A DNA stretch of 64,000 bases from Candidatus Magasanikbacteria bacterium RIFOXYD1_FULL_40_23 (GCA_001783215.1 MFRA01000001.1:157449-221448), one strand, 5' to 3'; counted from the first letter of the stretch, positions 16,043-57,658 are shown. The notes: generated from the sequence alone by a model not told the origin. Program-made: numbers and translations.

Positions 16043-16390
16043 ATGCAGACAATGCGAGATAGTCTGTCCAAGGTCTTCGACGAAGCGCTTGCTGGCAGCC
16101 ACAAGCTCAAGGTGATCTTCAAGCACGGCCGAGAAGGCTTTGATGTGATTTACTACCTGGCAGGTATGGTGGAGAGCAAGCTGGTGAAGCTGCCACCTGA
16201 CCAGGAAATTGCCTATATTGGCATCCGCACCGCCACCATCGAGGGGTGGCGGGACTACTGGAACGATATCAGCAATCGCACCACCACAATCGAGCTCACA
16301 GAGCTATTTCTGAACAACTACAAAAATTACAAGTTCTGGTTCTGTGACAGGTTGCATGAAGGCATGGCAAGTGTCGAAGTCGTCGAGTAG
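16043..16390 (+). CDS. hypothetical small protein, paralog of 13951..14256
   Basis: Carries GSHKLKVIF and the ASVEVVE C-terminus. Has its own promoter and RBS. Confidence 0.55.
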   Translation: MQTMRDSLSKVFDEALAGSHKLKVIFKHGREGFDVIYYLAGMVESKLVKLPPDQEIAYIGIRTATIEGWRDYWNDISNRTTTIELTELFLNNYKNYKFWFCDRLHEGMASVEVVE

Positions 16391-32118: not shown

Positions 32119-32235
32119 TGGATGTTTTGCGAGGCAGATAAATCTGCCCATTTTTTTTCACTAATTTTTTAGTGAAGACAAACGGACAGACAATGCCAGA
32201 AAGAATTCGTTAGAACTCTTAAATTTTTTTTACCA

Positions 32236-32345
32236 TTTTCTACTCGCCTTCGTCTTTTACTTCGGCGTAGCGAAGAGTGATACAAAAGATTTAAGAGAGG
32301 AAGAGTGCTGTTGGTATTTATCCAACAAAGCTTTTTCTTCCTACC
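32236..32345 (-). terminator. island 3' module A (duplicate of 37002..37110): two-hairpin terminator-like element
   Basis: About 75% identical to module B over about 110 nt. Contains the hairpins CTTCGgcgtagCGAAG and GAGGAAGagtgctgttggtatttatccaacaaagctttttCTTCCT. Confidence 0.5.
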
Positions 32346-32374
32346 TCAGCGTTTGCCAAGGATTTGGGGTGGTG

Positions 32375-33166
32375 TTAGGGCGGGGGCGGAATCACCTCAA
32401 TGTAGATGGATGCTTGATGGGTGGTGTTACCCATTCCATCGAAGCAGGTGAAGGTGTGCATGGCACTAGAGAGCGGCGCGAACTGCGGTCTGGAACCCGC
32501 CACTTCGTACGCCCCGCTTGAGAGCCCGCCTTGAACCGACGGTTGGCTCATGCCACCACAGCTAGTGGAGACGGTGTTGTCACCATCCCAGACGAGCGGC
32601 ACTTGCTGCCCTCTGGGGATTGAGTAATTACCGTCGGAGACAACTGTCGCATTGGTTACCGACATGCGCATCGCTCGGACTGCCACCGACTTCGGCTCTG
32701 ACACTGCTCCGGACTGGTCGAAACAAATCAGGGTATAGGTAGTCGTCCTGAAGAGCGGAACAACGTCCACCAAACCATTCGCAGCTTGAGAGCCGGAAAA
32801 GTCTGTGGCGCCGTTGTTCGCGGTAGCAGCGCAAACAACAACGGAGGCGTTGGTCGTCCAGGTCAACGAGACGGTTTCGCCTACGCGAACTTTGTCGTCA
32901 CTGACCGTGAACTCGACAATGTTCGGCGGTTCTGCCGCAGCGTCGATGATAGTCATACCACCATCGGTGCCAGCGTCATCATCCATAGGCATTGCATCCA
33001 TCTCAGCATCATCGTCAGCAGCTTCGCCACTCGGGTCGAATGCACAGGCAACGATAATGAGTGCTGACGCGACAATACCAGAAATAAACACTGCAGTGCG
33101 ATGCATGACATGCTCCCCCGACCAAAAAGGCCGTAAAATGGTTTTAACTACGTGGCAACTTGCCAC
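32375..33166 (-). CDS. lipoprotein with Ig-like domain (same domain family as 33415..35664); probable true start at 33106
   Basis: GGGGGAG RBS before the ATG at 33106 (MHRTAVFISGIVASALIIVAC, lipobox IVAC). The domain block is ...VSLTWTTNASVVVC...TYTLIC.... High GC. Confidence 0.6.
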   Translation of the reverse strand: MASCHVVKTILRPFWSGEHVMHRTAVFISGIVASALIIVACAFDPSGEAADDDAEMDAMPMDDDAGTDGGMTIIDAAAEPPNIVEFTVSDDKVRVGETVSLTWTTNASVVVCAATANNGATDFSGSQAANGLVDVVPLFRTTTYTLICFDQSGAVSEPKSVAVRAMRMSVTNATVVSDGNYSIPRGQQVPLVWDGDNTVSTSCGGMSQPSVQGGLSSGAYEVAGSRPQFAPLSSAMHTFTCFDGMGNTTHQASIYIEVIPPPP

Positions 33167-33287
33167 CCTAAATTTAACAAAGAATTTCTCTATTAAATTT
33201 TAGGTGGCAAATATATTTTTCAAAGAAATTTTTTTATAATTCGATCTGTATCATCTTCCTAAAAATTATTTAAGAAGATAATTAGAT

Positions 33288-33317
33288 CGTGTGAGCTTGT
33301 TGGTACAAGCTCACACG
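33288..33317 (-). terminator. hairpin H1 downstream of island gene 2 (covaries with H2)
   Basis: CGTGTGAGCTTGttggtaCAAGCTCACACG, preceded by the shared motif tcttcctaaaaattatttaagaagata. Confidence 0.45.
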
Positions 33318-33414
33318 TGGCTGACTGTCGCTTGTCCGATTTGCTTGCGCATTTCAGGCTTGCGAACTTCCGACTGTTGTCATGAGTGTCGGAGAACTCT
33401 CCTGATTCCTGCCG

Positions 33415-35664
33415 CTACAGGTTCGTGTTGGGCGGACCCGTCAACACCGTGACCGGCGTTGCGCACTGCAGATCCCAGGTGATCCCACTCGGCGGATTCG
33501 CATCCGTCGCGTGGCCTGGCAGCAGCGAACACCCAGTGGTGTATCGACGCGCACTGTCCTGAACTGCCCCTGGCGTCCAGATGCTCGATCCGCCCACAGG
33601 CATGACCGTGAGGAACGACGCGTAGTGGCAGGTGATGGCACAGACGCCATCGGGACCTGAGACCTTGTTGCCGACGAGGGTCAGAACCTGCGGAACTCCC
33701 GTTGCCGACCAGCCCTTGCAAACATCTATGCTTGGCAGATCGGAGTTCTTGTAGAACGCCTCCATTCCGTGACACATCGTGTTGGCGGGCGGAGCGGTCA
33801 CGCTGATGTTGACGAACTTGGTGATGGTGCCACCAGCGACACGGGTGCAGGTAAGCGTGTAGGTGTGCGTCGCGATCATCGTGGGGTTCACGATGATGTT
33901 GCCGTCCACCGGACGATCACCAGTCCAGGCGTTGCTTGCGGTACAAGCGTCGGCGTGGGTGCTATCCCACTCGAGCTTGTAACCACCACCCAATTGCACG
34001 GCCACAGGCGTGGCAGTGAGAGTCAGCGCCAGATCGGGCAGTTGCGGAGCCGTTACGGTCACGTCGGCCGTCGCGTTCACGCTACCACCAGGGCCGGTGC
34101 AGGAAAGCTGGTACTTGGCATCGCTGGTGGGGCTAACCACCAAGGTGCCATTTACCGGCTTCGATCCACTCCAGCTACCCGTGGCCGTACAACTCGTCGC
34201 GTTGGCCGTGCTCCAGCTCAGCGTGCTGCTCTGCCCCATGGTGATGGTGGCAGGCGTTGCGCTGAACGAGAGCGTTGGAAGCGGATGTTGAACCACGGTC
34301 ACAGTCGCCGTGCGAGTGATCTGCTGTCCACCTGGACCGTTGCAGGTCGCGGTGTAGGTCTTCGTTGCGTTCGGGCTGACCGTCATCGTTCCGCTGGTCG
34401 GCTTTGACACCGACTCGATCGTACAGCTAGTCGTGTTCGTACTCGCCCAGCTCAGGCAGCTGCTATCACCGGCGTCGATCGTCGATGGGGAAGCAGAGAA
34501 ATTGAGCGTGAGCAAGGGGTTGACGGTCACAAGCGCGCCGCGAGTGATCGACCCTCCAGGACCTTCGCAGGTCAAGGAGTAGGTCGTCGTCGAGGTCGGC
34601 ATGAGATTCGTCCACGAACCGCTCAAGGGTTGTGTCACCCAGTTGCCGCTGCTGTTGAGGCTACGGCAACTCGTCGCGTTCGCGCTCGTCCAGGTCACGG
34701 TCGTCGTCCCGCCCACATTGATAGTGGCTGGGCTGGCCGTGACGGTCAGAGTCGGAAGCGGCGGAGGCGGTGCGGCGTTGACGACCACAGTAACCGAATC
34801 GGTGACCACATCGTATGAACTGTTGTAGCAGGTCAAGGAGTAGGTCGTCGTCGTGGTCGGCATGAGTCCCGGCCACGATCCATCGATCGGCTGGGGTACC
34901 CAGTAGCCGCTAGCGTTCAGGCTCAAACAGTTCGTAGCGTTCTCGCTGTTCCAGCTCACTGTGGTGCTCTGCCCCACAGTGATGCTGGTCGACGTCGCGG
35001 TGACGTCGAGGGTCGGCAGTGGCGGTTGGATCACGGTCACGGTGACCGATCCATTGTAGCCATGGCCATCCAGACCAGTGCAAACCACCGTGTAGGCGGT
35101 CGTCTGGATCGGAGAGACCACGAAGGTGCCGTTGGGCATCTGCGACCACGTCTCGCTGTTGGTACAGCTCGACATGTTCGTGCTCGTCCAAACCACTGTG
35201 GCGCTCTGCCCCCTGCTGATTGTCATCGGAGTCGCCGTGACTTCGAGAGTCGGATCCGGCGGCGGAGGCGGCTGGATCACCGTCACATCGACGTGATCCA
35301 TGATGCCGACGCCGTTAAGACCGGTACACACCACCGTGTAGGTGGTGTCCACGGTCGGCGAGACCGTGTAGGTACCGTTGACCGGCTGGGACATGCCCAT
35401 GCTGGTGCAGTTGGCCGTGTTGGTAGACAGCCAGTTGATCGTTGCGCTCCCACCGAGGTTGATCTCCATCGGCGTGGCAGTCACGACCAAGGTCGGAGCA
35501 CCGGGCGGTGCATCCGGCGGCGGTGCGTCGGGCGGGGGCGTCGAAGCATCCTCTCCCATCGCATCCACCTCCGGCACGCTGCCGTCGGCTCCCAGGCCTT
35601 GTCCATCCACGACACATGCGGTGACCGAAGCCACCAGGAACAGCAAACTGATTGCCTTACGCAT
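33415..35664 (-). CDS. lipoprotein with about 7 tandem Ig-like domains (about 85 aa each, conserved Cys pair)
   Basis: GGAAGGAG RBS and lipobox VTAC. Repeats follow the pattern PTLxVTATPxxIxxGQSxTVxWxSxNATSC....TYTLTC. High GC. Confidence 0.65.
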   Translation of the reverse strand: MRKAISLLFLVASVTACVVDGQGLGADGSVPEVDAMGEDASTPPPDAPPPDAPPGAPTLVVTATPMEINLGGSATINWLSTNTANCTSMGMSQPVNGTYTVSPTVDTTYTVVCTGLNGVGIMDHVDVTVIQPPPPPDPTLEVTATPMTISRGQSATVVWTSTNMSSCTNSETWSQMPNGTFVVSPIQTTAYTVVCTGLDGHGYNGSVTVTVIQPPLPTLDVTATSTSITVGQSTTVSWNSENATNCLSLNASGYWVPQPIDGSWPGLMPTTTTTYSLTCYNSSYDVVTDSVTVVVNAAPPPPLPTLTVTASPATINVGGTTTVTWTSANATSCRSLNSSGNWVTQPLSGSWTNLMPTSTTTYSLTCEGPGGSITRGALVTVNPLLTLNFSASPSTIDAGDSSCLSWASTNTTSCTIESVSKPTSGTMTVSPNATKTYTATCNGPGGQQITRTATVTVVQHPLPTLSFSATPATITMGQSSTLSWSTANATSCTATGSWSGSKPVNGTLVVSPTSDAKYQLSCTGPGGSVNATADVTVTAPQLPDLALTLTATPVAVQLGGGYKLEWDSTHADACTASNAWTGDRPVDGNIIVNPTMIATHTYTLTCTRVAGGTITKFVNISVTAPPANTMCHGMEAFYKNSDLPSIDVCKGWSATGVPQVLTLVGNKVSGPDGVCAITCHYASFLTVMPVGGSSIWTPGAVQDSARRYTTGCSLLPGHATDANPPSGITWDLQCATPVTVLTGPPNTNL

Positions 35665-35687
35665 GAGAATCTCCTTCCGTAACGGTT

Positions 35688-35796
35688 GAGTGAGGCCGAA
35701 ATGGCCACTTGATGGCCACCATGGCCGAGAAACTACTCGGAGCTTACTACTTGTTGCCTCCGAATTAAATAAATATATTTTTTATATTTACTAAAT
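35688..35796 (-). promoter_or_regulatory. island 5' leader module L1 (near-identical to L2 at 36846..36963)
   Basis: About 110 nt and about 92% identical to L2. Contains two TGGCCAT direct repeats about one helical turn apart, a CTCGGAG/CTCCGA hairpin and an AT-rich promoter-like tract. Runs into the GGAAGGAG RBS and ATG of gene 2. Confidence 0.6.
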
Positions 35797-35903
35797 TCGA
35801 AGGCAACTTTTTGATTTTAATTTACTTTGGTTTTTTGAAAAGAACGCTTTTGTTTTTTAAGCTTCTCATCCTCCTAAATTTAATTAAGAAGATAAGATAC
35901 TAT

Positions 35904-35940
35904 CGCGACGTGTTCTCTGTATGAGAGAGAACACGTCGCG
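35904..35940 (-). terminator. hairpin H2 downstream of island gene 3 (covaries with H1)
   Basis: CGCGACGTGTTCTCTgtatgagAGAGAACACGTCGCG. It sits in the same position and after the same aagaagata motif as H1 but has a different stem sequence. Confidence 0.45.
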
Positions 35941-35987
35941 AACGCCTGCCTACACTTCCGATCGCTCGGTTGCGTAGATTGCGCTTG

Positions 35988-36812
35988 TCAGAACCAGCCG
36001 GTCCTGATGCCCAAACGGACACCCAGACCGAATCCGGTCCACCTGCCGACGTACATCGGCTCGGTGCTTACGGCTCCGACCACATCGGCGAACATGCCGA
36101 AGTGTTCCCAGTTGCCGGCCAACCGCAAGCCTGCATCCACGGCACGGAGCTGAACCAGCTCCTCTCCGGGATCGTCGACGTTGGAACAGAAGCTGAGGTT
36201 GACGGTGGGGCCGAGACCGAAGTGATCGCTGCGCTTGTTCAAGAGCGCCGCACCGGCCGTGGCCGCCACCTCGCTCTTGCCACAACCACCAACGCCAACG
36301 TTGGCGCTCCACTCCCAGGAACGGGTGTTGAGCGTCCCGACGAAGCCGGCGGTGAGCATCTCTTCGACGCTCTCGTCGTACCCGTCGCGATCATCGCGAG
36401 GTTGGAGCAGGACGAACCCACTGCCGAACAGGCCACCGCCAAAGCGGTACCTGCTCGTCTCCACCACCGTCACCGGGAACGGATCGAGCGTGACCGCCGG
36501 CGAAACCGCCGGTGCCTCCTCGTCCTTGCCGTTGTAGGTGTGGTTGATCACCTCGACGCACGCCGTGTCGATGTTCTTGACCGTGTGGATGACACCGGTG
36601 ACGGCGTCGACTTGGATCTCGGTGCGCGGCTTGCCCTCGGCACAGTCATCGTCGACCGGGACGACGCTGGTCTCCACCACCACATCGGCGGGAGGATCTT
36701 CGTTGCTCTGGGCTGCGACTTCCTGCGCCATCATGCCGATGAGGCAGATGCTGGCAAGGGTCAACAGACCATTCTTCTTCCACTGCATGTGCGAAACCTT
36801 CTTGACGAACAT
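35988..36812 (-). CDS. secreted protein with beta-barrel OMP-like C-terminus (ends ...GIRTGWF)
   Basis: GAAGGAG RBS before the ATG at 36812 (MFVKKVSHMQWKKNGLLTLASICLIGMMAQEVAAQ signal peptide). C-terminal alternating hydrophobics ending in Phe. High GC. The track began it at 36833. Confidence 0.55.
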   Translation of the reverse strand: MFVKKVSHMQWKKNGLLTLASICLIGMMAQEVAAQSNEDPPADVVVETSVVPVDDDCAEGKPRTEIQVDAVTGVIHTVKNIDTACVEVINHTYNGKDEEAPAVSPAVTLDPFPVTVVETSRYRFGGGLFGSGFVLLQPRDDRDGYDESVEEMLTAGFVGTLNTRSWEWSANVGVGGCGKSEVAATAGAALLNKRSDHFGLGPTVNLSFCSNVDDPGEELVQLRAVDAGLRLAGNWEHFGMFADVVGAVSTEPMYVGRWTGFGLGVRLGIRTGWF

Positions 36813-36845
36813 GGCGAGTTCTCCTTCTTCCAAAAACTGGTTGCG

Positions 36846-36963
36846 TGAGGCCGAAGTGGCCAGTAACGATGGCCACCATGGCCGAGAAACTTCTCGGAGC
36901 TTACTACTTGTTGCCTCCGAATTAAATAAATATATTTTTTATACTTACTAAATTCGAAGGCAA
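36846..36963 (-). promoter_or_regulatory. island 5' leader module L2 (duplicate of L1)
   Basis: See L1. Differs mainly by a 2-nt indel in the spacer between the TGGCCA hexamers. Confidence 0.6.
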
Positions 36964-37001
36964 TGTTTTTTGTTTTGTAAAGAACTTTTCCAATTTTTTC
37001 T

Positions 37002-37110
37002 TTTCACCACTCGCCTTTGCTTTTTGCTTCGGCGTAGCGAAGTGATGAGCAGAAAATTTGGGAGGAAGGGAGTGGTTGGTATTTCTCCAACAAGACTTCC
37101 CTTCCTCTTT
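37002..37110 (-). terminator. island 3' module B (duplicate of module A)
   Basis: ttttcaccactcgcctttgctttttgCTTCGgcgtagCGAAGtg...GAGGAAGGGAGtggttggtatttctccaacaagaCTTCCCTTCCTC, downstream of 37138..38025. Confidence 0.5.
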
Positions 37111-37137
37111 GACGACTGCCTCGAACTACTCGAGGCG

Positions 37138-38025
37138 CTACTTGCGCGTCACCTTGGCCGGCCGCGGGGTCTTCGGCGGCGGACCAGGGTGATTGACGGT
37201 CTTAATCCTGACCGTCACGGGCTTGACCGTTTCTTCTGCGGGCATCCCGGGCAGATCGCTTACCTTGATCCGATCCATCTTCTTGATCTGCTCAACATCG
37301 AGCTTGATGGAGTCGATGTCCTTCCGGACGTCGACCATCTGCTTGTTCAGCTTGCCGATGGCGGTCCACTGACCGCGCTGTCCCTTCTCGAATTTCTCGA
37401 GCTTCTCCACCCGCTCCTCGATCGTGGGCGGATCCACTTCCTCTTCCTGCGCAGCAGCACGCTCCGCACAGGGATCGTCGGCGGGAGCAGCTTCCTCCTC
37501 GGTCTCCTCCTCTTCGGTAGGCGTCACCACAGCCTGAGGCTGAGGCACTTCCTCCACCGCCGCGGGCGCGGGAGCCGGGGCGGCGACCGGCGGCGGAGCG
37601 TTCTCCGTCGGGGCAGCAGCACCGGAACCCTTGCCCACGTTGGTGACCTTGGTGCTGGCGGACTTGGACGAGTCCGAGCCACCGGACTTGAGCAGCATGA
37701 CGACGACGCCGAGAGCGACCAGGATCGCGATGGTGATCGCGAAGACGGTCCACGACTTCTTGTCGTCGGGCGGCGACGGGTCCGGCTGCTGGTACTGCAT
37801 GGTCTGCGGCGGCAGATTGATCTGCGCCGTGGGCGCCGCCGACTGCTGATACTGCGGCGGGAGCGTCGGGGGCGGGAGCGTCGGCTGGGGCGGGCTGCTG
37901 GGCAGCGGACGCTGCGGGGCCGGCGGCATGCCGGGGAGCGGGCGCTGCGGACTGATGGTCCCAGCAACAGGGGCTTGTGACCGAACAGTGGGCGAACCAT
38001 ACGGGGGCGTGGTCTTCTGCGGCAT
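37138..38025 (-). CDS. Pro-rich, single-pass membrane-anchored coiled-coil protein
   Basis: AAGGAG RBS. N-terminal PxxP-rich region, TM helix WTVFAITIAILVALGVVVMLL, Ala/Pro/Glu-rich linker, then C-terminal coiled-coil (EERVEKLEKFEK...). Two alternative high-GC frames were rejected. Confidence 0.6.
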   Translation of the reverse strand: MPQKTTPPYGSPTVRSQAPVAGTISPQRPLPGMPPAPQRPLPSSPPQPTLPPPTLPPQYQQSAAPTAQINLPPQTMQYQQPDPSPPDDKKSWTVFAITIAILVALGVVVMLLKSGGSDSSKSASTKVTNVGKGSGAAAPTENAPPPVAAPAPAPAAVEEVPQPQAVVTPTEEEETEEEAAPADDPCAERAAAQEEEVDPPTIEERVEKLEKFEKGQRGQWTAIGKLNKQMVDVRKDIDSIKLDVEQIKKMDRIKVSDLPGMPAEETVKPVTVRIKTVNHPGPPPKTPRPAKVTRK

Positions 38026-38191
38026 GGCGGTCTCCTTCTGTGTCTACCGAATCGTTGACTCGTGAGTTTCTTTCCCGCCTGATCAAATTGATCTTGCGAG
38101 AATCCACGAGTTGAAATACGTTGCTGCTAACTAATTCAAGGTACTACTTTTTTCTTTTGAACGACCACCTTTTTATCAGTGATAGTTCCAA

Positions 38192-38228
38192 TTAAAAACA
38201 GTAAAACCTCTTCTTTGCGAGAGAGGTT
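38192..38228 (-). terminator. putative intrinsic terminator downstream of the giant gene
   Basis: Minus strand: AACCTCTctcgcaaagaAGAGGTT then tttactgtttttaat. Confidence 0.35.
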
Positions 38229-38450
38229 GCAAGCTTAAATGCCCTTTATTGATCTGTTTAAATGGCTAAAACAACACCTCTCAATATTGCTCTAACCTCT
38301 AAATTTTCAACGATAGGCCACTATACCATAAAACCTAGTTTTTGTCAATAGGATGACAGGGGGAAATTATCTTTTTGGCTAACTACAAACAAAAAGTACC
38401 CCTTTTTAGAGATACTCTTTGTTTAAAATTTATAAAACTAAGTCATTTAG

Positions 38451-41400
38451 CTATTCAATAGGCGCGCCCGGCTCATTTTTTAGCATATCATTTGCCAGAT
38501 TTACTGCCTCTTCATAAGAATATTTTTGTACAATTTTTCCATCATCCATCTTTAATAAAACACCATCTTTAACGACAAAGGTATTATCCAAATCAGAAAT
38601 AAGAAATTCTTTACCTTCTCTGTCTGTAATTCTAGCAATATGACTATCGTTGGCCAGCATTTTAACACCGTCTTTATTAGGATCTAAAAATAATTTAAGC
38701 TCTTCACCTTCAAGATTTTTGTACCAATCCGGATTCTTATCTATATGATTAAACGCATCCAGTGTATCCTTCATTGTTCTGACGCTTTCAACTACTTTTT
38801 CATCTAAATTAGAAACATCGCCGGCAAAAACTTTTTTGGCATACTCTTTAAAGCTTGCCATTGACGGCTCATTTTCTATTTGTTTTTTAAGTATATCTTG
38901 GCCATCACCTACCATAATAAATTCCGTTTTTTGCAGCGCAATATTAGCTTTCATTGATTCAAAATTCTGATACATAACTTTAAAGCTTTCCACACTTTTC
39001 TCTGTCAATTCTGCAGGTTCTCCTGCAATCGCTTCGCTCTTTTCTGCCTGCTGCTTAGCGGACTCTTCTACTGTAGGTGATACTGGTTTTATTTCAGATG
39101 TTGACTTCGCAGTGTTTTCTAAACTAGTTTTAATTTCTACCTGCTTCGCTCCAGGAGCTGCTTGCACCACTTCCCCGCTAGCCTTAAAAGTTTTGATTGT
39201 TTTACCAACTAAAGTTTTTTCTGTCGTAGTTTCTTCACCTACTACCTCTGGTCCTTGAATATCATTTATAATATTGGCATTTGCCCAAAGCTTATCATCA
39301 ACAGACATTCCGTCATTGATACTTGTTCCGTTTAAGTTACCGGCTTTTTCTTTGGCTGCATTTATCACATATGTTCCTACGGGCTCTCCAGCACGTGCTC
39401 TATCAGAAATATTTATTGCTTCTTCTCCCATTTTGGCAAACTTAGCTTTGTCTGCTTCAATTTCTGCAAGTACAGCGCGATCACCCTCTGGCAACTCGAC
39501 AGCAGGAGCGTTTTTAAAATCACCTTCGTATGGAGCCTCTTCAATTGTTGTAGGAGAAGTTGTAATTTTAACCATTACCGTTTCTTTCAAAACCACTCTG
39601 CCCTGACCGCTCAAAATAGGTTCACCTTTTTCATCTAAACCAAAATATTTAAGCTCACCACCCTGCAAACTTACAGTTCTGCCAGTTCTATCTTCGGTAG
39701 CAGCCCTAAAGAAACCGGCATTGGCCAAATCTGTATTACCCTTGCCTTGCATGGCTCTAAATAAACCATAGACCATCTTTTTATCTGGTTTTTCGTCGTA
39801 TTGCTCTACAAATTTTAAGTAATCTTCGTGCGTGCCTTTGCCAATATATTCGGCCAAATAAGATTTATGCCTACTACTAAAATCTTGACTCTCCAAATAT
39901 TTAGCCGCACCTTCATAATCTTTTGCTTTTACAAGTTCTTCAAAAATTACAGATCTGCGTTCGCCTTCAGCCTCTATAAGAGTGTCTACATCGCCACGAA
40001 CAAGATCGGCATGATGGAATTTAACCCCATCACCCACTTTACTTGCTTCCAAAATCCTACTCAAGGATTCTTCTTTTAAGCTTGGATACTGTTCAACTAA
40101 TTTTTGTAACGGAACCAAGGACTCTTCACTTAATTTATGTTCGGCAGCAAAATCTTGCACAGAAAATAGTGCTGTTTCTGGTGCTATTGCTTCCGGAACT
40201 GGTTCTACACTAACCGTATTCACTGGCGCCACAATATCTTCTTTTGGTAATTCGGCAACTGAACTTGGCAATGCTATTTCTGGTGCAATACTTTCATGTC
40301 CAGTTACCTTGTCCCAAGCGCTCTCAGCTAGATGTCCAATATTTCCTGGGGTCTCCCAAACACGCTTTGCGTTTTGTACAAAACTATCAGATATAATAGA
40401 TGCATCTTTTTCTTTTATCGCTTGGATTAAATTATCTATACTTTCTTTTGGAGAACCTCCATGCAAAACTGTGATATTAAATATACCCACGCCGCGAGCA
40501 ATGGTGCCCAATGCTTTTACAAAATCCATAGCTCTAGCGACACCAGAAGAACCTTCCTTGGCGCCACGGAAAGTAAGCGCACGAGCAGTTTCTTTAGCAG
40601 TACTTGATATTATATCTTTCGTAAATGTTTTTGCATCTTTTTTGTCTTTTAAAGAGCCGGCGATATCTTTTATTTCTTCTTTTTTAACTTGCTTTATTTT
40701 TTCAAAAGCAGAAGCAGCAAGATACACTGCACCTCGCAACAAAGAAATGCCGGTAACTGTAAGTCCTAAATTTAAAGCGTCTTTGGCAATTTTAACTCCC
40801 GAAACTTTTCCATGTATATATGATTCTAAAAGCTCTCTCACTTCACTATCCCTATCATTTCTAGACTTAGTTGTTTCTGTTTTATGTTTTATGGAAATAG
40901 CCCATAATCTTTCTAAAATTTGTTTTTTGGCTTCTTCTTTAATATTTGCAGATCCAATTTTTTCTTTCAAATACTCTATACGTTTTTCAATTCGTTCATT
41001 TTCTGACAAAGCCTCCCCTTTTTTATTTTTTTCGGAAGCCACTAATAAATCTTGGTGGGCTGCAAAAATACTTTCTACGGCTGTTTTGGATTCTTTTGAT
41101 CCCTTTCTCCATTCTGCAAAATCTCCTCTTCCAGTTAAACCACCATATACAATATCTGTAATAATTTTTACACCAAAAAGAGTGGTTACAGTATCATAGC
41201 TTGCTTTTCCAATCGCAAGCCCAAATTCTTTACTAATGACAGCTTTTTTTAAACCGCTCGCTTTTTCTTTTACCCAACCCCACACACCTTTTTTCTCAGG
41301 AGCAGGCGCTGCCGGTACTTGAGGAGATATCTTTTGTATGAATTCCGCATGCAATTTTGGATAGTGTTTTTGCAAATCCTCTGCAAAAGCTTGCATATTA

Positions 41401-44045
41401 TAAAGAACCGTTTCATCCAATTTATTGTGCTGAGACATTTCTTTCTTAGCTTTATCAATATTCGTACGGATAACTTCCATTCTCCATTTAAAACTTTCCA
41501 TAACTTCCGGATTACCACTATTTTGTATAATTTTTTCTAAGGTACCAAAATCACGCTCATACATTTGTAAAAGCATTTTCTGTTCTGGAGATGGAAGGTT
41601 TTCTTCCCCAGATATTCGAGCTGTCGTAGGCGTCTCTAATGTATTTTTATCTGTTTCTGGAAAAGGTAAATCTACAGATGTCGGTTGAGATTTTTTATTG
41701 ATTTCAGCCAACCTACCATAAAATTTATTTTTTACTTCTTTTAACTCTTCTGGTAAGGTCAACTTACCAAAGGCTCTCATCAGTTTATCCAATTTTTCTT
41801 CGTATACATCTTCATTGTCCAAATTATTTTTTGCCTCTGCTATAGCATCCTTTACAGCTTGCAAGTCAGCAGTAAACTTAACACGTAAATTTTTATCCTG
41901 CTCATCCATTACCATCTCAAACAAAGACAAATCATCTTCTGTCTTCTTTATTCTATTTTCATATTCCTCTCTTTCCTGCTTTGTTCCAGAAGTTTCTTTT
42001 CCATTTAATCTAAGCTGATGCTCTTTTTTTACATTATTAGGAAGGGAATTCCACAACTCATTAATTAATACTTTTGCTTCCTTTAAATGAAGCTCGTGCG
42101 CCACACTGTCTTTTTCTACCAAACTTGCCTTCGCCTTATTTAAAAGCTGTATTGCAGCATCTACTAATAAAGATGTACGAGTTTCATAAAAATTATAACT
42201 TTTGTCTTTGCTATGAAAACGCTGTCGCATTATACGTTCAACCATCTTTATTCTCCTTATCTCTTCAAGGATAAGATCTACCCCTGAATCTTTGTCTTCT
42301 ACCTTGTCTTTAATTTCTTTTATAGAAGTCGTATCTTTTTTAACCATCTCTTCTCTTCTCAAAGAAGGTGTCTTGTCGGCAAGCTGGCTTTCGTACTCTA
42401 ATTTTACTTCTGATGGGACTTTGGTCAAAAGTTCAGTAAAGGCACTTTCGGCTCTATCTATTTCTCTGCTATGTACTCGAGGATTTCTGGCATGGTAAGT
42501 AAGGTCCAAGCTTTCCTCAATTTCTTCAACTAAAGACCTAATATTATCTGCTTGATCATCGGTCAAAATTTCTTCGGCAATATTTTTAAACAAAGCAAAC
42601 TTATCGTTCATTTCTTGATATCTTTTTTGTCTATATTCTGGAGCATCTTTATCAACAACCGCATCACCCACTACGACACTTGATTCTTTTTCGTCTTTTT
42701 CAACAACTGGTACCACTTTTTTCTTTTCACCTTTACCCAAAGAAGCTTTCTGGAGATTAAATTCTTTTCTTACCGCTTCTGAAACATTCAAAAAAACTTT
42801 GGTAAAATTGTGTTCAAATACTCTAAGCTGCTCTCTATATTCATCCCAATCATCGGTAGCTTCTATTTTTTCCAAAGCACTTTCAATTTTCTCTTCGTTT
42901 TCTTTGGTTTCTGCTCTTTCTTCTTTGGTCATTTTTTCCATAGCAAGAGACCTAAGCAACTCCCATCGCTCATCCGCATATTGCAATGTTTTATCCCTAT
43001 CTTCTTGCCAGTCTTTTTCCACAACTGGTTCTGCTTCTTTTTCTTTAGTCTTAACCTCTTCCTTTTCCCAGAATGGAGGGTTACCATTTAACTGACTAAA
43101 ATATTCCAACCTTGCTTTTGTTGGAATAGTGCGAATGATTAAATCAAAATTACGTTCAAACGCCGACATGGCGTTTTCGTATTCTTCTGCGTCATTAGAT
43201 TCAAGCGCTGTTTTTAAACCACCATTAATCGCATCCGTGGTTTCTTCGCTAACCGAACCTTCTCTCAACATTTTACCTATTATTTCCTGGAGAATATCCC
43301 ATCTTTTAACAGCATCCTGGTGTCTTTCTACTCTCTGCTCTTGCCCATTCTCAACAGCACCAGCTTTTCTTTTAGAGGCCTTCTTGGTTTTGTGCTCTGG
43401 CTTTTCTTTTTCGTCTTCTTCAGGCTCCGGCTGTAATTGTTCTGGAACCGCAATTTCTTTAGAATCAGTCTCAGCCTTATTTTCTCCTTTTTTTATATCC
43501 AAGAGAGCCAAGGTCTCTGTTTCTATTTCTAATTTTTTAGCCTCATAGCCTGCTGGGTCTTTAATCTCTAACAGTTCGGTAATTTCTCCCTTTATTTTTT
43601 TATATTTTCCAAAATTTTTAAACAAAACATTATCGCTCGCACTAGACTGTCCAACCAAATGCAACCTAGCTTCTTCGAGGTCTGCAAACAATTTAGCCTG
43701 CTCTATTTCTCTATCTTTTTTACCTTTATACTCTTTGAAGCTAAACGGCTTAGCTTCTGCCGATTTTCTTTTGGAATTTTTTGCTCCTTGAAACTCCAGC
43801 CCCAGGCTAGCAATTTCTAAATGAATTTTATTTTTAAATTCTTTTTTATTATCTGCACCATCATAAGAATCTAATTTTTCAGAAATCTTTCTTAAAGCCA
43901 AAATAAGATGGTCTTTTTTATCTTGAGGTATATCGGCCGAATTAATTTCGGCCTCTAACGAAGCCAGCCTAGTAGCTGTATCTTTTTGAAATGTGCTTTC
44001 ATTTTTATCTGGGGACGATCCCCTCTCCGGACCTCTTTTTGCCAT
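38451..44045 (-). CDS. giant K/E-rich surface/membrane protein (1864 aa), hypothetical
   Basis: The first about 900 aa are highly charged coiled-coil. A central region has hydrophobic helices (GLAIGKASYDTVTTLFGVKIITDIVYGGLTG, LNLGLTVTGISLLRGAVYLAASAF). The C-terminal region is globular. Start set at ATG 44045 (MAKRGPERG), which directly abuts the conserved leader. The track TTG at 44066 is less likely. Confidence 0.7.
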   Translation of the reverse strand: MAKRGPERGSSPDKNESTFQKDTATRLASLEAEINSADIPQDKKDHLILALRKISEKLDSYDGADNKKEFKNKIHLEIASLGLEFQGAKNSKRKSAEAKPFSFKEYKGKKDREIEQAKLFADLEEARLHLVGQSSASDNVLFKNFGKYKKIKGEITELLEIKDPAGYEAKKLEIETETLALLDIKKGENKAETDSKEIAVPEQLQPEPEEDEKEKPEHKTKKASKRKAGAVENGQEQRVERHQDAVKRWDILQEIIGKMLREGSVSEETTDAINGGLKTALESNDAEEYENAMSAFERNFDLIIRTIPTKARLEYFSQLNGNPPFWEKEEVKTKEKEAEPVVEKDWQEDRDKTLQYADERWELLRSLAMEKMTKEERAETKENEEKIESALEKIEATDDWDEYREQLRVFEHNFTKVFLNVSEAVRKEFNLQKASLGKGEKKKVVPVVEKDEKESSVVVGDAVVDKDAPEYRQKRYQEMNDKFALFKNIAEEILTDDQADNIRSLVEEIEESLDLTYHARNPRVHSREIDRAESAFTELLTKVPSEVKLEYESQLADKTPSLRREEMVKKDTTSIKEIKDKVEDKDSGVDLILEEIRRIKMVERIMRQRFHSKDKSYNFYETRTSLLVDAAIQLLNKAKASLVEKDSVAHELHLKEAKVLINELWNSLPNNVKKEHQLRLNGKETSGTKQEREEYENRIKKTEDDLSLFEMVMDEQDKNLRVKFTADLQAVKDAIAEAKNNLDNEDVYEEKLDKLMRAFGKLTLPEELKEVKNKFYGRLAEINKKSQPTSVDLPFPETDKNTLETPTTARISGEENLPSPEQKMLLQMYERDFGTLEKIIQNSGNPEVMESFKWRMEVIRTNIDKAKKEMSQHNKLDETVLYNMQAFAEDLQKHYPKLHAEFIQKISPQVPAAPAPEKKGVWGWVKEKASGLKKAVISKEFGLAIGKASYDTVTTLFGVKIITDIVYGGLTGRGDFAEWRKGSKESKTAVESIFAAHQDLLVASEKNKKGEALSENERIEKRIEYLKEKIGSANIKEEAKKQILERLWAISIKHKTETTKSRNDRDSEVRELLESYIHGKVSGVKIAKDALNLGLTVTGISLLRGAVYLAASAFEKIKQVKKEEIKDIAGSLKDKKDAKTFTKDIISSTAKETARALTFRGAKEGSSGVARAMDFVKALGTIARGVGIFNITVLHGGSPKESIDNLIQAIKEKDASIISDSFVQNAKRVWETPGNIGHLAESAWDKVTGHESIAPEIALPSSVAELPKEDIVAPVNTVSVEPVPEAIAPETALFSVQDFAAEHKLSEESLVPLQKLVEQYPSLKEESLSRILEASKVGDGVKFHHADLVRGDVDTLIEAEGERRSVIFEELVKAKDYEGAAKYLESQDFSSRHKSYLAEYIGKGTHEDYLKFVEQYDEKPDKKMVYGLFRAMQGKGNTDLANAGFFRAATEDRTGRTVSLQGGELKYFGLDEKGEPILSGQGRVVLKETVMVKITTSPTTIEEAPYEGDFKNAPAVELPEGDRAVLAEIEADKAKFAKMGEEAINISDRARAGEPVGTYVINAAKEKAGNLNGTSINDGMSVDDKLWANANIINDIQGPEVVGEETTTEKTLVGKTIKTFKASGEVVQAAPGAKQVEIKTSLENTAKSTSEIKPVSPTVEESAKQQAEKSEAIAGEPAELTEKSVESFKVMYQNFESMKANIALQKTEFIMVGDGQDILKKQIENEPSMASFKEYAKKVFAGDVSNLDEKVVESVRTMKDTLDAFNHIDKNPDWYKNLEGEELKLFLDPNKDGVKMLANDSHIARITDREGKEFLISDLDNTFVVKDGVLLKMDDGKIVQKYSYEEAVNLANDMLKNEPGAPIE

Positions 44046-44066
44046 ATACGATATGAGTGAGTGCAA

Positions 44067-49366: not shown

Positions 49367-49825
49367 TTGTGCTATTGTTTGCCTATGTCCCTTGCCGAAA
49401 ATAAAAAAGCTTTTTTTGACTATGAAATCCTAGAGAAAATCGAGGCTGGTTTAAAGTTGACAGGGCAAGAAGTAAAATCCGCTAAAGCTGGCCAAATAAA
49501 CCTAAAAGGCACTTTCGTCACCTTTCATAACGGCGAAGCCTACGTAACAAACATGCATATAAACAAATACAAAGCCGCAGGCCCTATGCCAGACTATGAC
49601 CCTACTCATTCTCGCCAATTACTCCTACGCAAGAAACAAATCGCTTATTTACAGGCAAAATCCCATGAAAAGGGCTTGACAATTATGCCTTTATCCGTGT
49701 ATACTAAGGGACGATTGATAAAGATTGAAATCGCTGTAGCTAGAGGAAAAAAGTTATACGACAAAAGAGAATCAATCAAAAATCGAGAACTCAAAAGAGA
49801 GCTTGATCGAGCGAGAAAAAACTAA
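49367..49825 (+). CDS. smpB: SsrA-binding protein SmpB
   Basis: ...KKAFFDYEILEKIEAGLKLTGQEVKS...GKKLYDKRESIKNRELKRELDRA is typical of SmpB. The likely start is an internal Met (MSLAENKK). Confidence 0.85.
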   Translation: MCYCLPMSLAENKKAFFDYEILEKIEAGLKLTGQEVKSAKAGQINLKGTFVTFHNGEAYVTNMHINKYKAAGPMPDYDPTHSRQLLLRKKQIAYLQAKSHEKGLTIMPLSVYTKGRLIKIEIAVARGKKLYDKRESIKNRELKRELDRARKN

Positions 49826-49826
49826 A

Positions 49827-50220
49827 GGGGGTGCCGGGCTTCGATAGAGGCTGCTGGCTACGCTGGCATACCGAGGAAGCTCTGATCCTCGTAAATCACA
49901 AAGAGCAACATAATAAGTGCAAACTTGTTATCAAAAGCTAAAGTTGCTGTAGCAAATTTATTTGCTGTCAGAGCTTTCGCTCCGGTAATGGCTTAATAGC
50001 CTGTTACCCATCGCGCCGATAATACTCAGTAATCGAACCGCGGTGTCATTAACTGAGAGTAGCTAATATGGAGCGCCGACTGTATATTAGTGAAGTTACC
50101 CGGCTCGTCAATCCAATTTTCGTCCTCTTTTATCGGGTTGATTAAATAACAAGAGACACTAAGTATGTAGAAGGTTTAGTCAAAGTTATCTACACGCGAG
50201 TTCAACTCTCGCCACCTCCA
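49827..50220 (+). ncRNA. ssrA: tmRNA (ssrA), 394 nt
   Basis: Begins GGGGGUGCCGGGCUUCGA 1 nt after the smpB stop. GCAUACCGAGG...CCUCGUAAA and the tag ORF with GCAAAC resume codon and UAAUAG double stop parallel E. coli tmRNA. T-arm GCGAGuucaacuCUCGC. Acceptor GGGGGUG/CACCUCC with discriminator A. Confidence 0.75.
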
Positions 50221-50303
50221 CTGTGTCGCGCCGAAGCTTTAGCGGAGGCGGACAACAAAATTAAACAGTCGCCTTCGCCTTTTAGGGCTTCGGCGTACCA
50301 AGT

Positions 50304-54239: not shown

Positions 54240-54435
54240 GGCTGTCCTCCTAATAAAAGTATAGCACTTAAATAAAAAAATTGACAGTGCTTAGGTTATA
54301 TAATAGACTAAAAATATAATTCGATGCGAATATAAGCAATTATTTAATTATAATTATTTACATACGCGTTGAATTCTAAAAAACAAAACGTGTAGGCTTG
54401 ACCCTGCCAAAATGGGTACAGAAGGGTGTCGCGCC

Positions 54436-54756
54436 ATGAATCCCCTAACCCGAGAAGTTAACCCTCCAAGGTGGAGACTTAACCTTGCTAGCGCCTCGCT
54501 CTTCCATAGAGCCAAACCCTTTGCAAATGTTGCTCTGTACGTACTGCTGGTCTCTGGACTGGCCTGCAGCTTCCTCGCCCTTTTTCACCATATGACTACC
54601 AGGCCCGTGCCGACTTTTTTTCACGGCATGAACCATGCATTCATCATCTACCCACAGAACCAGTACGCACTTCTTCCATCCACGATACGCCTACAAGCAG
54701 GCTACGCATCGCACAACAAACGACTGAGAACTACAATCTTCTCAGACAATCATTAA
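54436..54756 (+). CDS. possible small membrane protein (alternatively a structured non-coding transcript)
   Basis: GAAGGGTG RBS-like tract before the ATG at 54436 (MNPLTREV...) and one TM segment. A strong terminator immediately follows. Coding status is uncertain. Confidence 0.25.
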   Translation: MNPLTREVNPPRWRLNLASASLFHRAKPFANVALYVLLVSGLACSFLALFHHMTTRPVPTFFHGMNHAFIIYPQNQYALLPSTIRLQAGYASHNKRLRTTIFSDNH

Positions 54757-54781
54757 AGGCCATTCAATGGCCGTTTTTTTT
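54755..54781 (+). terminator. intrinsic terminator
   Basis: aaaGGCCATTcAATGGCCgtttttttt. Confidence 0.6.
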
Positions 54782-54943
54782 ACTCACGCTCTCGGTATCA
54801 CCGAGGGCAATTTTTTTAATATATGGGCTTTGCATAAAAAATATTAGCTACACTATATTTTCTCATTCATTCAGAAATAGCCAGGCTCAATATTTATATC
54901 TTGCAAGCAGTCTATAAACATCTCACTGTCTATTTCACTCACT

Positions 54944-55030
54944 CATTTCGAAAATACTAAGGTATTTTTCATACACGCTCGTAAATGAAAATAAATTTTC
55001 ACTTATCTCACTTTGCATAAAAAATAAAAA
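54944..55030 (+). repeat. degenerate copy of the leader-element family
   Basis: CACTCACTCATTTCGaaaatACTAAGGTATTTttcatacacgctcgtaaatgaaaataaattttcacttatctcactttgcataaaaaa. Confidence 0.4.
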
Positions 55031-55137
55031 AGCCACCAACCAATCATACTTCCATCTAGTGAAAATATGGTTGGTATGGTGGTGGCTTTTTTGCAAACAC
55101 CCCATCATACACAGATCGTAAACAGATGTTGCGACGG

Positions 55138-55518
55138 CTACTTAACCGGCGCAGACCAAGTATGCACCCACTTGAATCGTTCCAGCAATTGCTTGCGGTC
55201 CATCTCCCAAATGTCCTTCGGGATAGAGACGCCCATCATCCGAACCAGGTCCGTGATCAACAGAATCAAACCGTACTCGATCTTAGACCAATCATCCCTG
55301 GGTTGCGGCTTCTCAAGGTGAGTAATGAGCTCTGCCAAGGCTTCCACAGGCTTACGTCGCAACTTTTCAGCAGCAATGGAAGCCGTCACACTGTCTGCGA
55401 TAGATGGCCCCTGACACAACCGAAGCTCGCGAATGAACATATTTGCATGCGTCTTCACAAGCACAGCAATCGGAACTTTCATTCTCGTAAACAGGCTAGC
55501 ACTGTCTGTTGTGTACAT
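55138..55518 (-). CDS. putative all-alpha NTP pyrophosphohydrolase (MazG-like) protein
   Basis: ...EALAELITHLEK...EYGLILLITDLVRMMG resembles the EExxE...D...L(I/V)YLLRLA blocks of MazG-like enzymes. GGAGAA RBS before the ATG at 55518. The track TTG is at 55545. Confidence 0.3.
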   Translation of the reverse strand: MYTTDSASLFTRMKVPIAVLVKTHANMFIRELRLCQGPSIADSVTASIAAEKLRRKPVEALAELITHLEKPQPRDDWSKIEYGLILLITDLVRMMGVSIPKDIWEMDRKQLLERFKWVHTWSAPVK

Positions 55519-55668
55519 GATGTTCTCCAATTCTATAACCTGCAATGACCATACTATAAAAATACAAAAAAGTCAATGCTGGACAAAAAAACACCGTTAT
55601 TTATGCGGTATTTTTATTGGCGGAGAGTAAGGGGCGAAGTGGAAACTTGAGCTAATATTAATTATTAA

Positions 55669-55745
55669 AAATACCAAGGTATTTTCTTCACACGTTCAGA
55701 AATTAAAATAAATTTTATTTCATTCACTTTGCTTGAAAATAAAAG
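55669..55745 (+). repeat. degenerate copy of the leader-element family
   Basis: ACCAAGGTATTTtcttcacacgttcagaaattaaaataaattttatttcattcactttgcttgaaaataaaagcc. Confidence 0.4.
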
Positions 55746-55787
55746 CCGCACCAGTGTATTGGCGCAGCCGTAACGAAAAACGAATGA

Positions 55788-56252
55788 TCAATCATCGGGG
55801 TTGAGCCAGTAACGAAATTGGCCCAATCCTTCATGGTCGTGTGTGATGAGAACAAAATTTCCACGGTTTGTTCCCCACAGCCACCATTCTCTTTTTTTCG
55901 CGGTAGAACGAATATTATTTTCCATGTCTCCCACAATGCAGAGTGCTAGCGCTAAGGGCCAGCGTCCCTTGTTGTGGTCGGTGCCTACAGCAAGCCCGTT
56001 CATATCCAAAACTTTATACACAACATCACTCCCGGGATTCCGTTCAATCTGATAAATAATGATGTTACCCTGACCATCTTTCCACTCATGATAATCGTCC
56101 GTACCCAATCTTATCAAAGATTCCATGGTCAGCTTAAGCAGTCTTTCGGGGATTACTCCGTTGGGCTTGTTTCTTTCCAGTAGGAAATCAACCCGTTCCT
56201 TACCGCCTCTGATTTCGTTTATGACTTCATCACCATGCAGAAGTTTGGACAT
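55788..56252 (-). CDS. hypothetical protein
   Basis: AGGAGGA RBS 4 nt before the ATG. 154-aa ORF. Confidence 0.45.
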   Translation of the reverse strand: MSKLLHGDEVINEIRGGKERVDFLLERNKPNGVIPERLLKLTMESLIRLGTDDYHEWKDGQGNIIIYQIERNPGSDVVYKVLDMNGLAVGTDHNKGRWPLALALCIVGDMENNIRSTAKKREWWLWGTNRGNFVLITHDHEGLGQFRYWLNPDD

Positions 56253-56499
56253 GTTTCCTCCTGGCTGGATTTAACAACATTAAACGTGTTTTGTCAATGT
56301 ATAATCCGTTATTTCCCTCCACGCAAAAAGAAGGCTGCATACGGAACCTGCTTTTTCGCGGGGTGTATGGGACGACGTGGGAACTTGTTTAAACAAAAAC
56401 AACCCAGTTATATGAGTTGCTTTTGATAATACCGCGAATGTTTTTATCGACATCTTATTAGGCGTTTCGCGGTGGTACGCCAGTAATCGTTGTGGAACT

Positions 56500-56781
56500 C
56501 TAGTCGTTAATGATAATCTCGAAGTCACCCCAGTCAATCGGCTTACCATTATTAAGGTGATGGGGATTGTCGACGAGTTCCCCGTTTTTCCATTGCCGCC
56601 AAGCACCTTCAGCCATGCCGACCATGGTTCCTTTTATGACTAGCCAGTTACCATTGTGACCGAGCGGATTGGGAATGCGCTCCAGCTCAAAGTCACCTGG
56701 CCCCCTTTCCACCTTGCTTCTGTTGGGAGAAGAAGCGTCAATAAGTTCCCAGACTCGCTTGAGTGTTGCCTTCATGACCAT
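56500..56781 (-). CDS. hypothetical protein
   Basis: AAGGGG RBS before the ATG at 56781 (MVMKATLKRVWELI...). The track began it at 56844. Confidence 0.4.
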   Translation of the reverse strand: MVMKATLKRVWELIDASSPNRSKVERGPGDFELERIPNPLGHNGNWLVIKGTMVGMAEGAWRQWKNGELVDNPHHLNNGKPIDWGDFEIIIND

Positions 56782-57639: not shown

Positions 57640-57658
57640 GCACCGTGCCAACTTTAAC

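Follow-up and report, generated by a model that had tools for sequence, protein, structure and literature searches.

In the genomics of lambdoid phages, morons are autonomous units of promoter, open reading frame (ORF) and terminator that have an atypical composition and are located between other genes. Bacteria of the candidate phyla radiation (CPR, Patescibacteria) are thought to live attached to other microbes, and the proteins through which they make contact are almost uncharacterised. Reported here is an analysis of a GC-rich island of four genes, designated g1 to g4, located at 32.3-38.1 kb of a 64,000-nt stretch of DNA (the window) from Candidatus Magasanikbacteria bacterium RIFOXYD1_FULL_40_23 (GCA_001783215.1 MFRA01000001.1:157449-221448), a small bacterium of groundwater with a low-GC genome. 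The reading preferred, to which about an even chance is given, is that the island is a long-resident cell-surface module of foreign type, composed of four moron-like units in which GC-rich coding sequence is maintained. No description of GC-rich islands in Magasanikbacteria or CPR bacteria was found in the literature. The four genes are as follows.

g1, 32375..33106, minus strand: 243-aa lipobox protein with an acidic linker and two Ig-like repeats (OGH93372.1).
g2, 33415..35664, minus strand: 749-aa lipobox protein with an acidic/Pro linker, seven ~85-aa Ig-like repeats and a 115-aa Cys-rich C-terminal domain.
g3, 35988..36812, minus strand: 274-aa beta-rich protein with an N-terminal signal peptide and the C-terminus ...GVRLGIRTGWF.
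g4, 37138..38025, minus strand: 295-aa protein with a Pro-rich N-terminus, one transmembrane segment, an Ala/Pro/Glu-rich linker, a conserved C-terminal region and a basic Pro-rich tail.

A first-pass annotation of the window had described a sharp deviation in GC content at 32.3-38.1 kb spanning four co-oriented minus-strand genes. The deviation was confirmed, and extended to codon usage, by windowed GC, by GC at third codon positions (GC3) and by codon tables, and the genes were found where that annotation had placed them. In windows of 1 kb the GC content was 0.50-0.64 at 32-38 kb and 0.34-0.47 in the remainder of the window. Windows of 150 nt located the rise at ~32.35 kb and the drop at ~38.08 kb and resolved the interior into ORFs peaking at 0.55-0.79 GC, against a background of 0.35-0.41, and three troughs of ~0.33 GC at 33.1-33.3, 35.7-35.9 and 36.9-37.0 kb. 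The GC3 values of g1, g2, g3 and g4 were 0.61, 0.77, 0.82 and 0.82, whereas the remaining 50 ORFs analysed in the window, taken as the host reference, averaged 0.374 (sd 0.098). Lysine was encoded by AAG in 95% of cases in the island versus AAA in 79% in the host, proline by CCG in 60% versus CCA in 47%, and valine by GTC and GTG in 79% versus GTA and GTT in 70%. The amino-acid composition differed as well, the fraction of Gly, Ala, Arg and Pro (GARP) being 0.27-0.36 in the island proteins and 0.16-0.24 in the three neighbouring host proteins compared.

In the minus-strand frames of all four ORFs the third codon position had the highest GC content, which is the pattern of GC-rich coding DNA. 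The lowest was the second position (GC2) in g3 and g4 and the first (GC1) in g2, and the gradient in g1 was weak (GC1 0.57, GC2 0.51, GC3 0.61). A Shine-Dalgarno sequence was located 5-8 nt ahead of the ATG of each gene. Some public gene calls misplace g4 and g3 on the plus strand as ORFs of 336 and 289 aa (7685-8695 and 8817-9686 of contig L001; 2690-3700 and 3822-4691 of contig L138). Wrong-strand calls are a typical error in GC-rich DNA, and these plus-strand ORFs displayed the mirrored pattern of GC by codon position. The minus-strand frames of g3 and g4 are favoured by the codon-position pattern, by the Shine-Dalgarno sequences and by the homologue of g4 encoded on contig L008, which is described below.

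The ORFs alternate with non-coding modules, which extend the edges of the island to ~38350, where the putative g4 promoter and leader begin, and to ~32227, where the last terminator-like module stops. Along the minus strand the order is P0 and leader, g4, TermA, P1, g3, TermB, P1, g2, TermB, P1', g1 and TermA.

P0, 38320..38348, minus strand: predicted sigma-70-type promoter, TTGACA-17-TATAGT with a TG extension, 11/12 to consensus and the best site in the region.
g4 leader, 38026..38319, minus strand: ~295 nt, AT-rich and structured, with the Shine-Dalgarno sequence AAGGAG at its end.
TermA-1, 36995..37137, minus strand: 3' tail of g4 with three stem-loops (fold z = -7.7).
P1a, 36813..36969, minus strand: AT-rich promoter-like block upstream of g3 with a 13-nt inverted repeat, TTGCCTTCGAATT...AATTCGGAGGCAA.
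TermB-1, 35868..35987, minus strand: GC-rich 3' tail of g3 with a perfect 16-bp hairpin (35903-35941) and a second, AT-rich hairpin.
P1b, 35665..35812, minus strand: second P1 copy, upstream of g2, with promoter-like block, 5' untranslated region (5'UTR) and Shine-Dalgarno sequence.
TermB-2, 33255..33414, minus strand: GC-rich 3' tail of g2 with a 13-bp hairpin and a second, AT-rich hairpin (fold z -4.3).
P1', 33107..33215, minus strand: diverged promoter-like block of g1 with a short 5'UTR and the Shine-Dalgarno sequence GGGGGAG.
TermA-2, 32227..32374, minus strand: 3' tail of g1 with stem-loops homologous to those of TermA-1 (fold z -3.4), forming the end of the island.

The modules are duplicated within the island. 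The identity between P1a and P1b reached as far as the ribosome-binding site and was 91-96%, the value varying with the segment compared, though g3 and g2 are unrelated. The 3' part of P1a comprises a structured 5'UTR of ~100 nt with GGCCNNNNNGGCC hairpins (-32.5 kcal/mol, z -1.7) followed by the Shine-Dalgarno sequence of g3. The inverted repeat of P1', TTGCCACCTAAAATTTAA...TTAAATTTAGGGTGGCAA, measures 51 nt end to end and reproduces the geometry of P1 with another sequence. The 3' hairpin modules are of two types, each present twice, with fold z from -3.4 to -7.7. TermA-1 was 72-81% similar to 32227-32333. TermB-1, with a 100% complementary inverted repeat (-47.5 kcal/mol, z -7.2), and TermB-2 have in common the stem base ACGTGT...ACACG and homologous second hairpins, and their upper stems differ. 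The g4 leader, whose predicted RNA fold had z = -5.2 versus shuffles, contains a terminator-like hairpin and U-tract at 38190-38228 and may represent an undescribed class of attenuator or riboregulator. Since each ORF has its own promoter-like block, structured UTR, Shine-Dalgarno sequence and hairpins, each looks like an autonomous transcription unit.

The spacers had been described as AT-rich and host-like. They are AT-rich, with 0.40-0.44 GC overall and cores of 0.22-0.27 against 0.38 for pooled host intergenic DNA, but they are not generic host DNA, being made of island-specific, internally duplicated modules of which no copies were found elsewhere in the 64-kb window. GC values were 0.49-0.59 in the three internal 5'UTRs and in the tails that follow the g2 and g3 stop codons, and 0.48 in the stretch of g4 tail plus TermA. 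At the gathering threshold Rfam returned only the transfer-messenger RNA (tmRNA) and a tRNA in the window, and at permissive E-values it added only miRNA-precursor look-alikes on the P1 and P1' palindromes, which are generic hairpins. Scans of two collections with a DNA pattern for the TermA loop TTGTTGGANAAATACCAAC gave 78 and 50 loci, all of which were chance matches by BLAST. The two GGCCNNNNNGGCC motifs in each P1 5'UTR (35690-35730 and 36845-36885, minus strand) form a stable hairpin and resemble SfiI sites.

A switch in composition this extreme could arise if a GC-rich fragment of another organism had been joined to a CPR contig during assembly or binning, and several low-coverage assemblies indeed end within the island, inside g3 or at the duplicated P1 block. 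Those ends fall, however, at the 125-nt P1 repeat or in very GC-rich sequence, and the contigs overlap there, as is expected from repeats and GC bias. By exact-protein look-up and BLAST the island was recovered, 100% identical to the window, in many independent assemblies (ENA, JGI, NCBI, Logan). Contig L005 runs from the upstream host gene (1864/1871 aa) through g4, contig L139 starts at the g2 promoter, includes g2, g1 and Wzy and continues for ~11.6 kb into other host genes, and L001 (from a 130-kb contig) and L138 (from a 394-kb contig) span the whole island. Since contigs from different assemblers and samples traverse both host junctions, the island is not a chimera. The alternation of AT-rich modules with every ORF also argues against a joined fragment, as does L008, which independently has a GC-rich ORF between the same AT-rich flanks. 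Virtually no credence is therefore given to an assembly artefact. An engineered construct, an idea prompted by the modular promoter and terminator layout and the GGCCNNNNNGGCC motifs, was dismissed because the locus occurs in many environmental assemblies and has a diverged natural allele.

The island was present in all strains recovered, and the copies were nearly all clonal, differing in single amino-acid variants of g2 and in one repeat loss. In the L138 strain exactly one 261-nt Ig repeat of g2 is missing (662 versus 749 aa) and all else is identical; the loss corresponds to a crossover between the neighbouring g2 repeats 3 and 4 (34567-35025), which are 72% identical. The sequence suggests a real in-frame repeat loss, an assembly collapse being less likely. 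A further g2 variant of 782 aa was rejected as a contig-end artefact.

The evidence for long residence comes from L008, a 1.1-kb Logan contig from an unrelated run that encodes the only g4 homologue found. Its allele is 46% identical to g4 in protein and 68% in ORF nucleotides, with a GC3 of 0.80. The flanks are far better conserved: the last 191 nt of the leader were 83% identical, the 3' half of the leader hairpin with the U-tract was identical at 27/27 positions, and the TermA module at 70/72 (97%). On a literal reading of these figures, the two lineages would have separated long ago (Ks, the synonymous divergence, about 0.7), the non-coding modules would be strongly constrained, the g4 protein would be evolving fast outside its C-terminal region, and the GC-rich synonymous sites would have been kept. 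Of the 99 four-fold degenerate sites under identical residues, 41 differed, comprising 16 G<->C, 24 strong<->weak and 1 A<->T difference. Two five-parameter HKY models were fitted to these sites, one with a free ancestor decaying to the host four-fold composition and the other stationary with a free GC-rich equilibrium. The stationary model had a log-likelihood (lnL) of -218.3 with ~0.33 substitutions per site per lineage, and the decay model had a lnL of -227.8 with an implausible kappa of 0.41. For this one gene, on one 1.1-kb contig with 99 sites, the stationary GC-rich model thus appears clearly better than decay.

These results bear directly on a recent transfer from a present-day high-GC partner or host, in which the composition would be that of the donor and not yet ameliorated. 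The GC3 of 0.77-0.82 and the donor-like codon usage are what such a transfer predicts, and the 46-97 nt of GC-rich sequence trailing g2 and g3 may be left over from the flanks of the donor. Moreover, the three best-scoring g2 homologues with retrieved contigs were located in DNA of 56-63% GC (gene GC3 0.73-0.85), one of them adjoining an exosortase, which is compatible with a GC-rich source. However, searches of ~5.8 billion clusters and 1.84 billion representatives yielded no close homologue. In another sample the same AT-rich modules enclose a g4 allele of 46% identity whose GC3 is still ~0.8, the synonymous pattern fits stationarity and not one-way decay, and the 5' junctions are precise to the Shine-Dalgarno sequences of duplicated modules of host type. 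The proposal, made in the first-pass annotation, that the ORFs were acquired from a high-GC partner is accordingly weakened: the homology search for a donor lineage identified none, g3 is an orphan, and the one relative of g4 is set in the same AT-rich scaffold. Recent transfer is considered unlikely.

The same conserved flanks invite a second explanation, in which the AT-rich modules would anchor exchange by homology, or serve as landing pads, and the ORFs between them would be replaced time and again by alleles of a GC-rich gene pool. Such a cassette exchange would explain why the flanks (83-97%) are conserved above the coding sequence (68%), why the unrelated g2 and g3 have a common 5' module and a similar 3' module, and why the module order is mosaic (TermA-P1, TermB-P1, TermB-P1', then TermA). 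The flanks are equally well explained, however, by purifying selection acting on structured RNA together with rapid evolution of the proteins, and the two alleles of g4 align collinearly as orthologues, the C-terminus being conserved. Neither a recombinase nor, by reading, attC-like sites were found, and further module-bearing cassettes were found neither in the window nor by the pattern scans of collections. Exchange of this kind is judged decidedly unlikely.

A third explanation holds that the genes are native CPR surface genes driven GC-rich in place, either by gene-specific selection, such as rare-codon translational control or selection on mRNA stability or structure, or by GC-biased gene conversion at a recombining locus. 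The search with g2 returned 1231 homologues across many phyla, Patescibacteria included, with best local identities of 27-46%, and at most 40% where most of g2 was covered, among the matches listed. The presence of the Ig-repeat family in Patescibacteria genomes is in accord with a native origin, as are the apparent stationarity of GC3 over a Ks of ~0.7, the repeat recombination in g2, the host-type composition of the putative regulatory modules and the restriction of g3 and g4 to this scaffold. Against it, the g2 homologues examined in three other low-GC, CPR-like contigs had a gene GC of 0.46-0.50 and a host-like GC3 of 0.31-0.41. Since these homologues keep a host-like GC3, amino-acid content is also excluded as the cause of the high GC of the island. 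In addition, GC1, GC2 and the amino-acid make-up are shifted together with GC3, g3 and g4 are not repetitive, so that a recombination-based bias is not obviously expected in them, and we know of no mechanism for ORF-limited GC drive in bacteria. A native origin is a possible but doubtful explanation.

The preferred reading, a long-resident surface module of foreign type, would combine these observations as follows. The coding parts were probably derived from a GC-rich lineage and their arrival would not be recent. Selection, or a process biased to GC, would hold the GC-rich codon usage and prevent its decay to the AT bias of the host. Each ORF would be driven by its own AT-rich promoter block, structured 5'UTR and strong Shine-Dalgarno sequence and closed by stem-loops, and the four products would most likely together form or decorate a surface structure for attachment or contact. 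Several points weigh against this reading. The persistence and the GC maintenance come from one gene, 99 synonymous sites and one 1.1-kb contig. The promoter and terminator functions of the modules are predictions, and the adhesion or contact role is a reasonable proposal based on the kinds of domain present and on the neighbouring genes. The searches identified no donor lineage, g3 and g4 having no homologues outside this scaffold and g2 none above 46% local identity among the matches listed, and the bit scores of g2 to proteins of GC-rich genomes may partly reflect shared amino-acid composition. Finally, g1 and g2 could be native, as the Ig-repeat family is also common in Patescibacteria.

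The products of g1 and g2 have lipoboxes after hydrophobic cores, ...LIIVAC in g1 and ...SVTAC in g2 (pattern [LVI][ASTVI][GAS]C, matched by eye), and are predicted to undergo lipoprotein processing and to be lipid-anchored. On alignment the two are paralogues, similarity extending from the signal peptide through the acidic linker into the repeats (BLASTP E 2e-9). A hidden Markov model built from the g2 repeats detected seven units in g2 and two in g1, and two conserved Cys residues were present in each of the seven g2 repeats. The AlphaFold2 (AF2) model of the repeat, obtained with a 50-sequence repeat alignment, was all-beta with a predicted local distance difference test score (pLDDT) of 96.7 and a predicted template modelling score (pTM) of 0.82. 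The top Foldseek matches in the PDB were S-layer, PKD and Ig domains, among them Deinococcus HPI, an archaeal S-layer PKD domain, Dscam, titin and GhpA, with template modelling (TM) scores of 0.5-0.7. The confident all-beta model and these structural matches support the Ig-like assignment. The earlier description of both proteins as lipoproteins of Ig-like domains with Cys pairs thus stands, the Cys pairs having been located in the g2 repeats. No Pfam model reached E = 0.01 for g1 or g2, which indicates that the repeats are an unmodelled subfamily. The 115-aa Cys-rich C-terminal domain of g2 had no match in the 120 listed g2 homologues.

The g3 protein is an orphan. A word-indexed search of 5.8 billion clusters returned g3 itself only, and phmmer against 1.84 billion representatives returned only a spurious match to a low-complexity repeat protein (P0132, E 2.5e-4). 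No similar protein was found in a phage collection. The single-sequence AF2 model (pLDDT 37.6) was too poor for a fold search. An outer membrane protein (OMP)-type beta-signal had been proposed for the C-terminus, such a signal being defined here by a terminal Phe or Trp and, counting back from the C-terminus, by hydrophobic side chains at positions 3, 5, 7 and 9. The terminal Phe fits, but positions 3, 5, 7 and 9 are G, R, G and R, and the hydrophobic residues at positions 6, 8, 10 and 12 and the Trp at position 2 are out of register with the canonical signal. The beta hydrophobic moment was no higher than in shuffled sequences (z 0.9), residues 167-273 contained a few amphipathic stretches, and no match was obtained to an OMP family in Pfam, even at E <= 10, or to a sequence in the PDB. 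The results argue against the proposed signal. CPR bacteria are generally regarded as having no outer membrane.

For g4 (GC 0.67) the first-pass description of a Pro-rich protein with a single transmembrane segment was borne out by the N-terminus and by a segment at about residues 92-112, with a Kyte-Doolittle (KD) hydropathy of 3.09 at 94-112. The coiled-coil was judged by reading the sequence, in which the conserved C-terminal region appears heptad-like by eye. No Pfam match was found for g4. The sole homologue, P0131 on L008, was ~74% identical over the C-terminal ~95 residues, against 46% overall. Locus searches of GTDB genomes and JGI metagenomes guided by the g4 alignment gave pattern matches and no true relative.

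The entries for g1-g3 (OGH93372-4 in NCBI) and for the flanking gene in NCBI and UniRef derive from metagenome-assembled genomes of Candidatus Magasanikbacteria. The island is located in an envelope-related neighbourhood, between a Wzz-like gene and the gene for a 1871-aa Glu/Lys-rich protein on one side and that for a Wzy_C/O-antigen-ligase-like membrane protein on the other. Further neighbours of envelope type encode a GHL15 glycosidase with FG-GAP repeats, a Mur ligase, an MraY-type transferase, MurB and a sulfatase-family protein. The position among envelope and polysaccharide genes fits a role of the products in a surface structure. The gene for the 1871-aa protein (38451-44066, minus strand; GC3 0.27; sub-threshold DUF3347 match only) lies directly upstream of the island and may belong functionally with it, being on the same strand and immediately ahead of the g4 promoter.

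The reported absence of mobility genes was upheld. Among the 50 ORFs outside the island that are 110 aa or longer, Pfam scans revealed no integrase, transposase, recombinase or phage genes, and the public gene calls within ~10 kb of the island contained no integrase, transposase or recombinase. The tRNA-type genes of the window identified with ARAGORN and Rfam, the tmRNA at 49.8 kb and tRNA-Asp at 57.1 kb, do not adjoin the island. No convincing direct repeats flank it, the similarity near the two ends being limited to a weak 25-nt match of 72-76%, and no similar DNA was found in a plasmid collection.

Other ORFs of the window with raised GC content were also recorded. Those at 1145-1786 (plus strand) and 282-959 (minus strand) have 0.49-0.50 GC, a GC3 of 0.54 and no Pfam match; the first, of 213 aa, combines a signal peptide with a beta-rich sequence of alternating pattern and is possibly secreted or barrel-like, and the second, of 225 aa, resembles a polytopic membrane protein. 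A milder stretch of 0.44-0.46 GC at 54412-58885 contains five ORFs of 114-177 aa (GC3 0.47-0.53, no Pfam match) and the tRNA-Asp gene (57080-57154), and is directly followed by a gene for a sigma factor of the extracytoplasmic function (ECF) type (59037-59624, plus strand). Two uncertain genes on the plus strand, also lacking a Pfam match, encode a Cys-rich protein of 155 aa (9956-10423, GC 0.48) and a protein of 115 aa (16043-16390, GC3 0.71). A Fic/DOC-family gene is located at 1936-2445 (minus strand), and SmpB is followed directly by the tmRNA gene at 49367-50223 (plus strand).

Two features of the island deserve to be followed, the persistent GC-richness confined to ORFs and the duplication of conserved, putatively regulatory modules around unrelated ORFs. 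Tentatively, they may mean that a CPR bacterium actively keeps its surface genes GC-rich and insulated in AT-rich modules, either because the bias is regulatory or because the modules are landing pads. In the first case the bias could make translation dependent on rare tRNAs or shape mRNA structure or stability; in the second the GC-rich pool would possibly be genes of a bacterial host. Either, if true, would represent a previously undescribed organisation of contact or variation genes in episymbiotic bacteria. Maintenance of the GC content, if true, would challenge the assumption that foreign genes ameliorate and point to gene-specific codon or GC selection or to an unrecognised exchange mechanism. 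If stationarity fails on more data, the locus would be an old, donor-less genomic island of orphan surface proteins. The island provides four concrete candidates for contact proteins, namely the two lipoproteins with Ig repeats, the secreted orphan g3 and the bitopic membrane protein g4, and GC-rich ORFs set in conserved AT-rich modules are a signature with which similar loci can be searched for.

Among known systems, the repeat surface proteins with Ig or PKD domains (Deinococcus HPI, 8cka; archaeal S-layer PKD, 1l0q; GhpA, 9flx) resemble g1 and g2 in their beta-sandwiches of ~85 residues (query-normalised TM 0.59-0.69), and the g2 repeats are likewise in tandem and vary in number between strains. 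Unlike those proteins, g1 and g2 are lipobox-anchored, have 8-23% identity to the solved domains among the matches listed and correspond to no Pfam model, and none of the listed g2 homologues contains a relative of the Cys-rich domain at the g2 C-terminus. Integron cassette arrays and clusters of attC sites lacking an integrase (CALIN) have in common with the island co-oriented ORFs of foreign composition and repeated hairpin-forming intergenic elements. The hairpins of the island, however, lack the attC organisation (RYYYAAC ... GTTRRRY at the stem base), the order and position of GTT and AAC being wrong. Manual reading of the four 3' modules revealed no attC core (R''-L''...L'-R', GTTRRRY), no intI recombinase is encoded in the window, and each unit apparently has its own promoter. 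Since the hairpins lack attC core motifs and intI is absent from the window, an integron array was rejected.

The island resembles classical genomic islands in being a discrete block of atypical GC content and codon usage that encodes secreted and surface proteins within a core chromosome. It differs from them in the absence of an integrase or transposase, of a bordering tRNA gene (tRNA-Asp is ~19 kb away) and of convincing flanking repeats, in yielding no donor in the searches, in a GC-richness confined to the ORFs and short tails, and in the GC3 evidence against amelioration. With phage morons the comparison is closest at the level of the unit. The composition of the island ORFs is sharply unlike that of their neighbours, the products would be accessory envelope or surface proteins, and each ORF has a promoter-like block and a hairpin terminator-like module, a likeness recognised in the sequence. 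In contrast to morons, the island is outside a prophage, with no phage genes or matches found nearby, and its four units stand in tandem with common duplicated modules, an arrangement kept in a diverged lineage.

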